A stretch of 9,605 nucleotides of DNA, taken from the IMG/VR virus record IMGVR_UViG_2706794696_000003; one strand, given 5' to 3'. The notes beneath the pieces are model-generated. The model was not told the DNA's origin. It saw only the letters and a list, made by a program, of their open reading frames with translations, and did no database searches. Positions 4,255 to 9,605 of this stretch are shown piece by piece. How positions within the stretch are numbered: the first letter of the stretch is position 1; every line of letters starts with the position of its first letter. The position numbers were made by a program, and so were the translations under genes. Origin of the DNA: a virus. Its lineage: Duplodnaviria > Heunggongvirae > Uroviricota > Caudoviricetes.

Positions 4255-4449
4255 ATGGTGCATTGTCNNNNNNNNNNNNNNNNNNNNNNNNNNNNNNNNN
4301 NNNNNNNNNNNNNNNNNNNNNNNNNNNNNNNNNNNNNNNNNNNNNNNATTGGTGTGCTGGGAAGTCTGCTTCTGGGGCTTCTGACTTATCTGACAAATCT
4401 GTATTTCAAAATAAGAGAAGACAAGCGTAAGGCTGCGAGAGGTGAATAA
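4255..4449 (+). CDS. S: class II holin / pinholin (phage 21 S-like), interrupted by an N-run
   Basis: The post-gap segment 4348-4449 encodes [33 protein letters not shown], matching the C-terminal half of the phage 21 S pinholin as recalled; its stop overlaps the endolysin start (TAATG). The N-terminal part lies in or before the N-run. ATG 4255 is in frame only if the gap length is exact, so the start is provisional. Confidence 0.55.
4268..4347. other. run of 80 N (assembly gap or masked bases)
   Basis: Directly visible in the sequence. It falls inside the holin coding region. Confidence 0.99.
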
Positions 4450-4946: not shown

Positions 4947-5407
4947 GCAGAGTCACCGCGATTATCTCCGCTCTGGTTATCTGCATCATCGTCTGCCTGT
5001 CATGGGCTGTTAATCATTACCGTGATAACGCCATTACCTACAAAGAGCAGCGCGACAAAAACGCAAGAGAACTGAAGCTGGCGAACGCAACCATTACTGA
5101 CATGCAGCAGAGACAGCGTGATGTTAATGCACTCGATGCTAAATACACGAAGGAGTTAGCTGATGCGAAAGCTGAAAATGAAACTCTGCGCGCTGATGTT
5201 GCCGCTGGTCGTCGTCGGTTGCACATCAAAGCAGTCTGTCAGTCAGTGCGTGAAGCCACCACCGCCTCCGGCGTGGATAATGCAACCAGCCCCCGACTGG
5301 CAGACACCGCTGAACGGGATTATTTCACCCTCAGAGAGCGGCTGATGACGATGCAGATGCAACTGGAAGGGGCACAGGAGTATATCCGCACTCAGTGCAT
5401 TAAGTAG
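4943..5407 (+). CDS. Rz: Rz i-spanin (inner-membrane spanin subunit)
   Basis: 154 aa. N-terminal transmembrane helix ([18 protein letters not shown]) followed by a coiled-coil periplasmic domain; very similar to lambda Rz as recalled. Start ATG 4943 overlaps the endolysin stop. Confidence 0.9.
5163..5345 (+). CDS. Rz1: Rz1 o-spanin (outer-membrane lipoprotein), embedded in Rz in the +1 frame
   Basis: 60 aa. Lipobox LVVVGC followed by a proline-rich segment (PPPPPAW); lies entirely within Rz in a different frame, the classical embedded-spanin arrangement. Confidence 0.85.
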
Positions 5408-5921: not shown

Positions 5922-6416
5922 ATGGCTGGAACGGCGGGGCGTTCCGGGCGTCGCCCCAAGCCAACGGCGCGCAAGGCGCTGGCCGGAAACCCCGGCAAGC
6001 GAGCCCTGAACAAAGATGAACCTGTTTTTACGCCCATCAAAGGTGTTGAGCCACCAGAGTGGTTCGCTGAAGAAGATCTCCCTCTCGCCACGATCATGTG
6101 GCAACTGACAACCAAAGAACTCTGCGGTCAGGGCCTGCTGTGCGTGACTGACCTGGCGGTACTTGAGCGGTGGTGCGTGGCCTATGAGTTCTGGCGACGT
6201 GCCGTGAAAAATATTGCCATACAGGGCAACACCATCACCGGTGCAATGGGCGGCAGGGTCAAAAATCCGGAGCTGACCGCCAAAAAAGAACAGGAGTCCG
6301 AGATGAGCAGCACGGGGGCAATGCTCGGACTCGACCCCAGCAGCCGCCAGCGTCTGATTGGCCTGGCGGGGCAGAAGAAAGCCACTAACCCGTTTCTGAA
6401 AATTATCGAATCATGA
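5922..6416 (+). CDS. terminase small subunit (P27 family)
   Basis: 164 aa. N-terminus [27 protein letters not shown] is typical of P27-family small terminases. AGGAG at 5909-5913, 8 nt before ATG 5922 (ORF track used GTG 5913). Stop overlaps the large-subunit start (ATGA). Confidence 0.85.
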
Positions 6417-8146
6417 GCCGGAAATCTTACCCCAACGTAAATGCTGCAAATCAGTATGCCCGGGATGTCGTGCGCGGAAAGATTGTTGCCTGCCAGTTTG
6501 TGATTCAGGCCTGCCAGCGCCATCTTGATGACCTGATGGCGGAAAAAAGTAAGTCGTTTCGTTACCGCTTCGACAAGGACCTGGCTGAACGGGCCGCGAA
6601 ATTTATTCAGCTGTTGCCGCACACCAAGGGGGAGTGGGCATTCAAACGGATGCCCATCACGCTGGAGCCGTGGCAGCTATTTGTGATCTGCTGTGCGTTT
6701 GGCTGGGTCAATAAAGGCACCCGGTTGCGCCGCTTCCGGGAGGTGTACACCGAAATCCCCCGTAAGAACGGCAAATCAGCAATCTCTGCCGGTGTTGCCC
6801 TGTATTGTTTTGCCTGTGATAACGAGTTTGGCGCGGAAGTGTATTCCGGTGCCACGACAGAGAAACAGGCGTGGGAAGTCTTTCGCCCGGCGCGACTGAT
6901 GTGTAAACGCACACCCATGCTGACGGAAGCGTTCGGGATTGAGGTTAACGCCTCAAACATGAACCGTCCGGAGGATGGCGCGCGGTTTGAACCGCTGATC
7001 GGCAACCCAGGTGATGGTTCATCACCCCACTGTGCCGTGGTTGATGAATATCACGAGCATGCCACCGATGCGCTTTATACCACAATGCTTACCGGGATGG
7101 GGGCGCGACGTCAGCCACTGATGTGGGCCATCACCACCGCCGGGTACAACATTGAGGGGCCGTGCTACGACAAGCGGCGGGAAGTCATCGAGATGCTCAA
7201 CGGCTCGGTGCCTAACGATGAACTGTTCGGGATCATCTATACCGTTGATGAAGGTGACGACTGGACCGGCCCGCAGGTGCTGGAAAAAGCCAATCCAAAT
7301 ATTGGCGTGTCGGTTTATCGCGAATTTTTGTTAAGTCAGCAGCAGCGTGCGAAAAATAACGCCCGTCTGGCAAACGTCTTTAAAACAAAACACCTCAATA
7401 TCTGGGTGTCGGCGCGTTCGGCGTATTTCAACTTGGTGAGCTGGCAGAGCTGCGAGGATAAATCACTGACCCTTGAGCAGTTCGAGGGGCAGCCGTGCAT
7501 TCTGGCCTTTGACCTGGCGCGTAAGCTGGATATGAACAGCATGGCGCGACTTTATACCCGCGAGATTGACGGTAAAACGCATTACTACAGTGTGGCCCCG
7601 CGTTTCTGGGTACCGTATGACACGGTGTACAGCGTCGAGAAAAATGAAGATCGACGGACAGCCGAACGCTTTCAGAAATGGGTGGAAATGGGCGTTCTGA
7701 CCGTTACCGATGGTGCGGAGGTGGATTATCGCTACATCCTCGAGGAGGCCAAAGCGGCGAACAAAATCAGCCCGGTCAGTGAGTCACCCATCGACCCCTT
7801 CGGGGCGACCGGGTTGTCACATGACCTTGCTGATGAAGACCTGAATCCCGTCACTATCGTCCAGAACTTCACCAATATGTCCGATCCGATGAAAGAGCTG
7901 GAAGCAGCGATTGAATCGGGACGTTTTCATCATGACGGCAATCCCATCATGACCTGGTGTATCGGCAACGTGGTCGGCAAAAACATGCCGGGTAACGATG
8001 ATGTGGTGAAACCCGTCAAAGAGCAGGCGGAAAACAAAATCGATGGTGCAGTTGCGCTGATTATGGCGGTTGGCAGAGCCATGCTGTACGAGAAAGAAGA
8101 CACGCTGTCTGACCACATTGAGTCCTACGGGATCCGCTCGCTTTAA
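6413..8146 (+). CDS. terminase large subunit
   Basis: 577 aa. Walker A-like motif (PRKNGKS), an acidic ATPase motif (VVDEYHEH) and a C-terminal nuclease-like region; classical position after the small subunit with translational coupling. Confidence 0.95.
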
Positions 8147-8157
8147 CTGAGGTAATT

Positions 8158-8340
8158 ATGATCATGCTGATTCTCGCGCCTCTGGTGGGCGTGCTGGGTG
8201 CGCTTTTGCTGGCGTATGGTGCCTGGCTGATTTATCCCCCGGCGGGTTTTGTTGTTGCCGGGGCGCTGTGCCTGTTCTGGTCGTGGCTGGTGGCGCGATA
8301 TCTCGACCGTACACGGCAGTCTGTCGGCGGAGGTAAATAG
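8158..8340 (+). CDS. small membrane protein (60 aa, two predicted transmembrane helices)
   Basis: GAGGT at 8149-8153, 4 nt before ATG 8158. Two hydrophobic stretches ([21 protein letters not shown] and [16 protein letters not shown]) with a basic C-terminus. Its stop overlaps the predicted portal start. Confidence 0.5.
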
Positions 8341-9496
8341 TGTTCTTTTCGGGATTATTTCAACGAAAAAGCGATGTGCCGGTGACCACGCCAGCAGAAC
8401 TGCTGATGCTATCGGGCTGTCATACGACACCTATACCGGAAAGCGGATCAGTAGCCAGCGGGCCATGCGCCTGACGGCGGTCTATTCTTGCGTCAGGGTG
8501 CTGGCAGAGTCTGTTGGTATGCTGCCCTGCAGTCTCTACAAAATCAGCGGTACCCTGAAAACACGGGCGGTGGATGAACGACTGCATAAGTTGGTTTCGG
8601 CAAAACCTAATGGCTACATGACACCGCAGGAATTCTGGGAGCTGGTTATTGTCTGCCTGTGTCTACGGGGGAATTTTTACGCCTACAAGGTAAAGGCACT
8701 GGGAGAAGTGGTGGAGCTTCTTCCGATAGATCCGGGCTGTGTGGAACCGAAGCTGAACAGCCAGTGGCAGCCGGTTTATCAGGTGACGTTTCCGGATGGT
8801 TCCGTGGATGTGTTGACCCAGAATGAAATCTGGCATGTGCGCACCCTGACGCTGGATGGACTTGTCGGGCTGAATCCCATTGCGTATGCGCGTGAGGCCA
8901 TTTCACTGGCAGCGGCAACCGAGGAGCACGGTGCCAGGTTGTTTAGTAATGGTGCGGTGACATCCGGTGTGTTGCGTACGGAACAAAAGCTCACGCCGGA
9001 TGCTTACGAGCGTCTGAAGAAAGATTTTGAGGAGTGTCACACGGGGCTTGGCAATGCTCACCGCCCGATGATTCTGGAAATGGGGCTGGACTGGAAGTCG
9101 ATGGCGCTGAACGCCGAGGACAGTCAGTTCCTGGAAACCCGCAAGTTTCAGCTGGAAGAAATCTGTCGTCTGTTCCGGGTGCCGTTGCACATGGTGCAGA
9201 ACACCGATCGCGCCACCTTCAACAATATCGAAGAGCTGGGGCTGGGATTTATCAACTATTCACTGGTGCCGTATCTGACCCGCATCGAACAGCGGATCAA
9301 CACCGGACTGGTACGAAAAAGTAAGCAGGGCGTTTATTACGCCAAATTTAACGCCGGGGCGTTACTGCGCGGGGATATGAAGTCCCGTTTTGAAGCCTAC
9401 GCCACCGGGATCAACTGGGGAATTTACTCTTCCAATGACTGCCGCGACCTGGAAGATATGAATCCGCGTCCCGGTGGTGTAATGCCGATCAGTTAA
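8340..9496 (+). CDS. portal protein (HK97 family), with an apparent -1 frame discontinuity near the 5' end
   Basis: The main ORF (frame of 8249-9496) carries the conserved portal core from about QRAMRLTAVYSCVRVLAESVGMLP. A strong ribosome-binding site (GGAGG 8329-8333) precedes GTG 8340, which opens a 44-codon frame ([26 protein letters not shown]...) ending at TGA 8472-8474. The main frame has no ATG, GTG or TTG between 8340 and ATG 8465. The span 8340-9496 is 1157 nt, not a multiple of 3. Confidence 0.8.
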
Positions 9497-9528
9497 GGAT
9501 CAGTTGACCGATCCAGTGGCTGTGTAAG

Positions 9529-9563
9529 AATCCGGAAACGCTCACTTGTTTCCGGATTTTTTT
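9529..9563 (+). terminator. strong intrinsic terminator directly after the portal gene
   Basis: Perfect 10-bp stem ATCCGGAAAC / GTTTCCGGAT with an 8-nt loop, followed by seven T (9557-9563). Confidence 0.7.
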
Positions 9564-9605
9564 ATGCACATTGGACAGGCTCTTGATCTGGTATCCCGTT
9601 ACGAT

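Follow-up and report, generated by a model that had tools for sequence, protein, structure and literature searches.

Organization of the portal locus

The right-hand part of the window (the whole stretch of 9,605 nt that was analyzed) carries TerL, ymfR, an interrupted portal gene and the left end of an IS4 element, inside which the window ends. The coordinates of these features are collected in Table 1. No NCBIfam match was obtained for ymfR, and phage records annotate a membrane protein at its position. The one-base overlap between the ymfR stop codon and the portal GTG suggests translational coupling, and the sequence leading into the start (...ggaggtaaata-GTG) is common to the closest relatives of the locus (L001-L005, L060 and L061).

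Translation from GTG 8340 yields 44 codons. The original prediction, a model's reading of the sequence alone, had described this frame as one with a strong ribosome-binding site that encodes a plausible portal N-terminus. All of this held, except that only the first 21 codons are portal and the following 23 are out of frame. Exact look-up of the 44-aa product returned no record, but such short ORFs may simply go uncalled. The portal core was expected to continue in the -1 frame relative to 8340, and this frame is indeed open from 8249 to 9496. The statement that it offers no upstream start codon is not strictly correct, as TTG codons are found in the portal frame at 8249, 8252 and 8255. We considered these TTG codons as true starts and rejected them: they lie inside ymfR, and the residues that they would add are unlike the MFF[SP]GLF N-terminus of the relatives described below. 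Finally, ATG 8465 does open a frame of 343 aa that runs to the TAA at 9496, as predicted, but its last five codons come from IS4, which had been missed.

Table 1. Features of the portal locus. Positions refer to the window.
Feature	Position	Strand	Remarks
TerL, 577 aa, intact	6413..8146	+	Carries derived T at 7433, synonymous, Leu341
ymfR, 60 aa	8158..8340	+	TAG stop at 8338-8340 shares one base with the portal GTG
GGAGG Shine-Dalgarno sequence	8329..8333	+	6-base spacer to GTG 8340; motif also found 5' of intact homologues
Portal 5' end, GTG start and 21 codons in the original frame	8340..8402	+	Homologous to MFF[SP]GLF...PAEL N-termini of intact relatives
1-nt deletion site	8402..8403	+	CTG GCT GAT to CTG CT GAT; single gap column against E. 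coli A36
Out-of-frame tail of the GTG 8340 ORF, LMLSGCHTTPIPESGSVASGPCA	8403..8474	+	Stop codon TGA at 8472-8474
Portal core in the -1 frame, ADAIGLSYDTY ... NPRPGG	8403..9479	+	Corresponds to residues 22-380 of a 413-aa portal
343-aa ORF of gene callers	8465..9496	+	ATG without Shine-Dalgarno sequence; final five codons VMPIS* are IS4
Left end of IS4, TAATGCCGATCAG...	9480..9605	+	Transposase ATG at 9564; takes the place of the last 33 portal codons

Comparison with intact portals places a one-base deletion

The closest complete-genome match to the window was found in E. coli A36 (93.7% nucleotide identity), where the PGAP annotation has TerL, ymfR and a portal of 413 aa, with a prohead protease and a major capsid protein after them. 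Alignment of window positions 8300-8520 with A36 contained one gap column only, with flanks 97% identical. Where intact genes read CTG GCT or CTG GCG (codons 21/22), the window reads CTG CT, and one G is gone. As two Gs stand side by side in the intact sequence, the exact base lost is not assignable. From precisely this point onward, the portal is read in the -1 frame (ADAIGLSYDTY...). Alignment to intact portals had been proposed as a way of locating an indel, and it places this one at 8402/8403.

We then turned to a wider set of portals. A protein-guided scan with one genome per species gave 63 loci, which were re-analyzed together with A36 by tblastn and ORF extension. The resulting 56 full-length relatives (A36 and 55 others; L001-L049, L051 and L053-L058) span about 25 genera, including Escherichia/Shigella, Edwardsiella, Klebsiella, Serratia, Citrobacter, Enterobacter, Yersinia, Xenorhabdus, Photorhabdus, Proteus, Morganella, Gilliamella and Pseudomonas, and each carries one uninterrupted ORF of 396-413 aa. 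Their start codons correspond to 8340, or in L051, L054 and L055 lie within one codon of that position, and the ORFs typically open with MFF[SP]GLF behind a Shine-Dalgarno sequence. In none of the 56 does the ORF begin at the counterpart of ATG 8465, an outcome that would have spoken against the predicted frameshift.

The family assignment of the gene is clear. Once repaired, the protein matches TIGR01537 (portal_HK97) at 263.7 bits (cut-off 112.05) over residues 39-379, which correspond to positions 3-343 of the 343 in the model, and PF04860 is recorded on the 343-aa product. The A36 portal is 97.4% identical to the repaired protein at the amino acid level and matches the HK97 portal structure 8cez (E = 1.2e-53). 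A functional member would be expected to have a single frame of about 400-415 aa from MFF.GLF, within the gene order TerS-TerL-portal-protease-major capsid. In the window, the frame is broken at 8402/8403 and gives way to IS4 from 9480. HNH, TerS, TerL and ymfR are in place upstream, but the S. sonnei chromosomes lack the protease and capsid genes found in A36. The window gene is thus a pseudogene of an HK97-family portal and not a functional member.

We found no record with the deletion in complete genomes of E. coli, among the matches listed over 8340-8474: each of them has 136 nt against 135 in the window, and the best is 94.1% identical. An E. coli prophage was thus not the source of the deletion. 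Nowhere in E. coli was the whole window covered to 80% or more, a result that argued against E. coli proper. An exact DNA pattern spanning the indel had no match in genome contigs, a collection in which S. sonnei is not a species representative.

The deletion is present in independent S. sonnei assemblies

TerL, YmfR, TerS, the helicase (AAZ89406.1, strain Ss046) and the 343-aa ORF are exact matches to Shigella sonnei proteins, and the 343-aa product is found on at least 1000 contigs, complete chromosomes among them. One explanation offered for the broken frame was a draft-assembly indel, in which the G would be present in the real genome and lost by a base-calling or assembly error. The window is indeed a draft with a scaffold gap of 80 N, the lost base belongs to a GG pair, and split genes that other assemblies lack occur elsewhere in some long-read assemblies of the locus. 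However, ten independent S. sonnei assemblies at chromosome scale (L065-L074) match window positions 8100-9605, including CTGCTGATG, with 100% identity. Moreover, the 414-aa 'putative portal protein' AAZ89394.1 of Ss046, a genome determined by Sanger sequencing in 2005, equals the translation of window 8252-9496 exactly, and Ss046 therefore carries the same deletion. The 343-aa call is found in 1695 index blocks, against 31 for P0076, a repaired form of the protein discussed below. The alternative allele, in turn, is linked to a SNP at 7433, which points to two lineages and not to random error. With the base missing in ten assemblies and in the Sanger genome, a sequencing or assembly artifact is extremely improbable, and we take the deletion as real.

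The N-run that had been noticed in the window lies at 4268-4347 and is irrelevant to the deletion site. In finished S. sonnei chromosomes this gap corresponds to about 653 bp (L065 5231-5883), with the window parts to its left and right mapping at offsets 963 and 1536, and it takes in the 5' part of the holin gene together with sequence upstream. Some of the assemblies (L068, L071, L072 and L074) have split TerS, TerL or helicase calls, which are unshared and look like assembly indels; unlike those, the portal deletion is found in 10 out of 10 assemblies (L065-L074).

IS4 truncates the portal gene in a prophage remnant

Homology to intact portals ends at 9479 (codon 380), and in complete genomes an IS4 transposase is called downstream of the portal. 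The gene order in complete S. sonnei genomes is IS3-family element, DnaB-like helicase, RusA, Q, ORF6N, holin, lysozyme, Rz, HNH, TerS, TerL, ymfR, truncated portal and IS4. In most genomes another IS follows on the 3' side of IS4, and then bamE-recN-nadK-grpE, while in L070 and L073 IS4 is followed by raiA-pheA-tyrA-aroF. These differing neighborhoods (L070 and L073 as opposed to L065-L069) indicate IS-mediated inversion or rearrangement. Protease, capsid and tail genes were found after IS4 in none of the complete S. sonnei genomes. As no head or tail genes follow, the locus is a prophage remnant of about 10 kb, bounded and rearranged by IS elements. The bases to the left of the 9479/9480 junction resemble the IS4 flank in E. 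coli J53 (AATCCGC...GG.GTAATG), a similarity that may reflect target preference.

Two S. sonnei alleles order the lesions

A minority of S. sonnei records retain the G. A repaired 385-aa protein, with intact N-terminus and VMPIS tail, is on record in this species (P0076; CSN80531.1 and others, on 19 contigs), as is a 379-aa partial product. The G is present at the site in L076, L078 and L080-L084. Over up to 5.2 kb, the extra G and a C at 7433 are the sole differences between the G-containing contigs and the window, apart from one additional SNP in L078; L076 is 99.97% identical to a finished chromosome over 10.2 kb. Linkage is perfect in the loci examined: T at 7433 occurs with the deletion and C with the G present. 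Outgroups, namely Edwardsiella (L002), S. flexneri (L003) and a MAG (L005), have C at this position. Hence the minority allele, with the G, is ancestral, and both of the linked changes in the window lineage are derived.

The minority contigs also cross the identical 9479/9480 junction and extend 23-126 bases into IS4 before ending inside the element. Since the minority allele shares this junction, IS4 was in place before the G was lost. The allele pair (G present or absent, with linked C or T at 7433) thus gives the relative order of the two lesions, IS4 first and the 1-nt deletion second. Judging from these sequences, the G was lost within S. sonnei, from a gene whose last 33 codons IS4 had already removed. 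Loss of the head genes probably also preceded the deletion, although the contigs of the G-containing lineage stop within IS4. Deletion of the G together with T at 7433 could serve as a clean, if minor, phylogenetic marker within S. sonnei.

Two further G-containing records (L075 and L077; CXDF01000101 and CXCV01000197) represent a sub-variant with a different early region, which encodes ninB, ninE, Gp49/HTH, ANT and a PF03589-type Q. They show a multi-base gap from window position 5111, in the Rz (lysis) gene, yet their 385-aa portal is the same and is likewise truncated by IS4. This combination suggests that the upstream part is a recombinant mosaic.

Recoding and internal initiation

The original prediction also allowed for an unusual translational event. 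A programmed -1 ribosomal frameshift, or transcriptional slippage, somewhere in 8340-8474 would restore a near-full-length portal. The two frames overlap throughout, the portal frame being open from 8249, and the A5 run at 8366-8370 would allow re-pairing of a P-site tRNA-Lys in the -1 frame. However, no in-frame X_XXY_YYZ heptamer is present in 8340-8474, where the only runs are T4 (8346) and A5 (8366). The A5 run is found equally in the intact A36 gene and hence is no adaptation, a shift at this run would replace the conserved SDVPVTTPAEL, and a run of five A is too short for transcriptional slippage. The RNA of 8372-8474 gave a minimum free energy z-score of -0.42 relative to shuffled sequences, indicating no stimulatory structure, and an Rfam search of 8100-9605 returned no match. 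Furthermore, the 56 full-length relatives and the sister S. sonnei lineage all use one frame, and the gene in question is truncated by IS4 and without its capsid partner genes. We therefore set the proposed translational event aside and assign recoding a probability close to nil.

The frameshift could instead have created a new, shorter gene, with the truncated core expressed from ATG 8465 (343 aa) or another internal start and kept for a host function. The 343-aa ORF keeps nearly the whole TIGR01537 core (residues 39-379, with the ATG at residue 43) and is identical in 10 out of 10 genomes. On the other hand, ATG 8465 has no Shine-Dalgarno sequence, the conserved N-terminal 42 residues and the C-terminal 33 are missing, and the sister lineage, which keeps the G, does without the deletion. 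Identity among the ten genomes is what a young clone would show in any case and is uninformative on selection. To our knowledge, no function has been described for a portal without a capsid. Retention of the core as a new gene is thus very unlikely. We give equally little credence to its more specific form, in which an internally initiated core (343 aa or shorter) would be made and co-opted by S. sonnei, for example to disturb the assembly of superinfecting phages of the phiP27/SfIV type by poisoning their portal rings.

Annotation of this single pseudogene in public records is inconsistent, with at least three different 'portal protein' products, of 414 aa (Ss046, from TTG 8252), 343 aa and 332 aa (strain 3226-85). 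The ORF spans concerned are 8249-9496, 8252-9496, 8465-9496 and 8498-9496. Partial products of 336-342 aa, cut at contig ends in IS4, are also on record. The 414-, 343- and 332-aa 'portal proteins' of S. sonnei are ORF-calling artifacts on a frameshifted, IS4-truncated pseudogene.

Discussion

Taken together, the data almost certainly reflect a real loss of one base from the portal of a decayed S. sonnei prophage related to phiP27, in a gene already truncated by IS4, and thereby an ordinary case of secondary pseudogenization. Among the explanations first put forward, a genuine inactivating mutation in a defective prophage came closest. The mutation is genuine and the prophage defective, but 'inactivating' is an overstatement, as the 3' end of the gene had already been lost to IS4.

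The locus is a remnant of a phiP27/ST64B-type prophage (with an HK97-like head module) in S. sonnei. As the first lesion, IS4 joined the gene after codon 380, at 9479/9480, removing the last 33 codons; the protease, capsid and tail genes are absent in complete genomes as well. Later, and within S. sonnei, one G of CTG-GCT was lost as the second lesion. Translation from GTG 8340 now leaves the frame after 21 residues and ends at 8472-8474. Nothing is predicted to restore the frame, and no normal-length portal protein could be made. The deletion was presumably neutral, a secondary mutation in a gene that was already useless, and the allele without the G would owe its majority to descent within the dominant lineage of S. 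sonnei. The finding carries little biological weight, being a further example of gene decay in a Shigella prophage remnant ridden with IS elements, and its practical value lies in annotation.

Comparison with known systems

Programmed -1 frameshifting is well known from the tail assembly chaperones G/GT of lambda and HK97-like phages. The likeness of the window to G/GT is superficial and consists of the overlap of two frames in a late gene of a phage. Unlike G/GT, the window has no slippery heptamer, and its arrangement is not conserved in relatives. We know of no programmed frameshift in a portal gene.

The nearest counterparts are phage portals. Over residues 1-380 of the repaired protein, the portal of the Stx2e-converting phage phiP27 (AJ298298 / NC_003356) is 97.1% identical at the amino acid level, and those of SfIV and ST64B are about 91% identical. 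In phiP27 and several others, the portal is encoded in one frame with a small membrane protein annotated adjacent to it. Relative to phiP27, SfIV and ST64B, the window has one G less at codon 21/22, IS4 in place of the last 33 codons and no head genes thereafter.

A decayed member of the same portal family is found in two E. coli loci (L060 and L061), which we take to be beeE, the portal pseudogene in the defective e14 prophage of E. coli K-12. The ymfR-portal junction is the same as in the window (cggcggaggtaaata-GTG); residues 1-135 are matched at 85% identity, and the ORF has 157 aa. The E. coli gene is cut after about 135 codons and has no 5' frameshift, whereas the S. sonnei gene is frameshifted at codon 21 and interrupted by IS4 at codon 380.

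Finally, the decay of this locus resembles that of other Shigella genes lost through IS elements and small indels. Shigella IS elements have been described as a cause of pseudogenization and rearrangements (PMC8072062), and the picture seen here is typical of Shigella. The S. sonnei remnant is likewise flanked and truncated by IS4 and IS3-family elements, and we see no difference between the two. The deletion in the portal gene is an event of an already known kind, the secondary decay of a prophage remnant.
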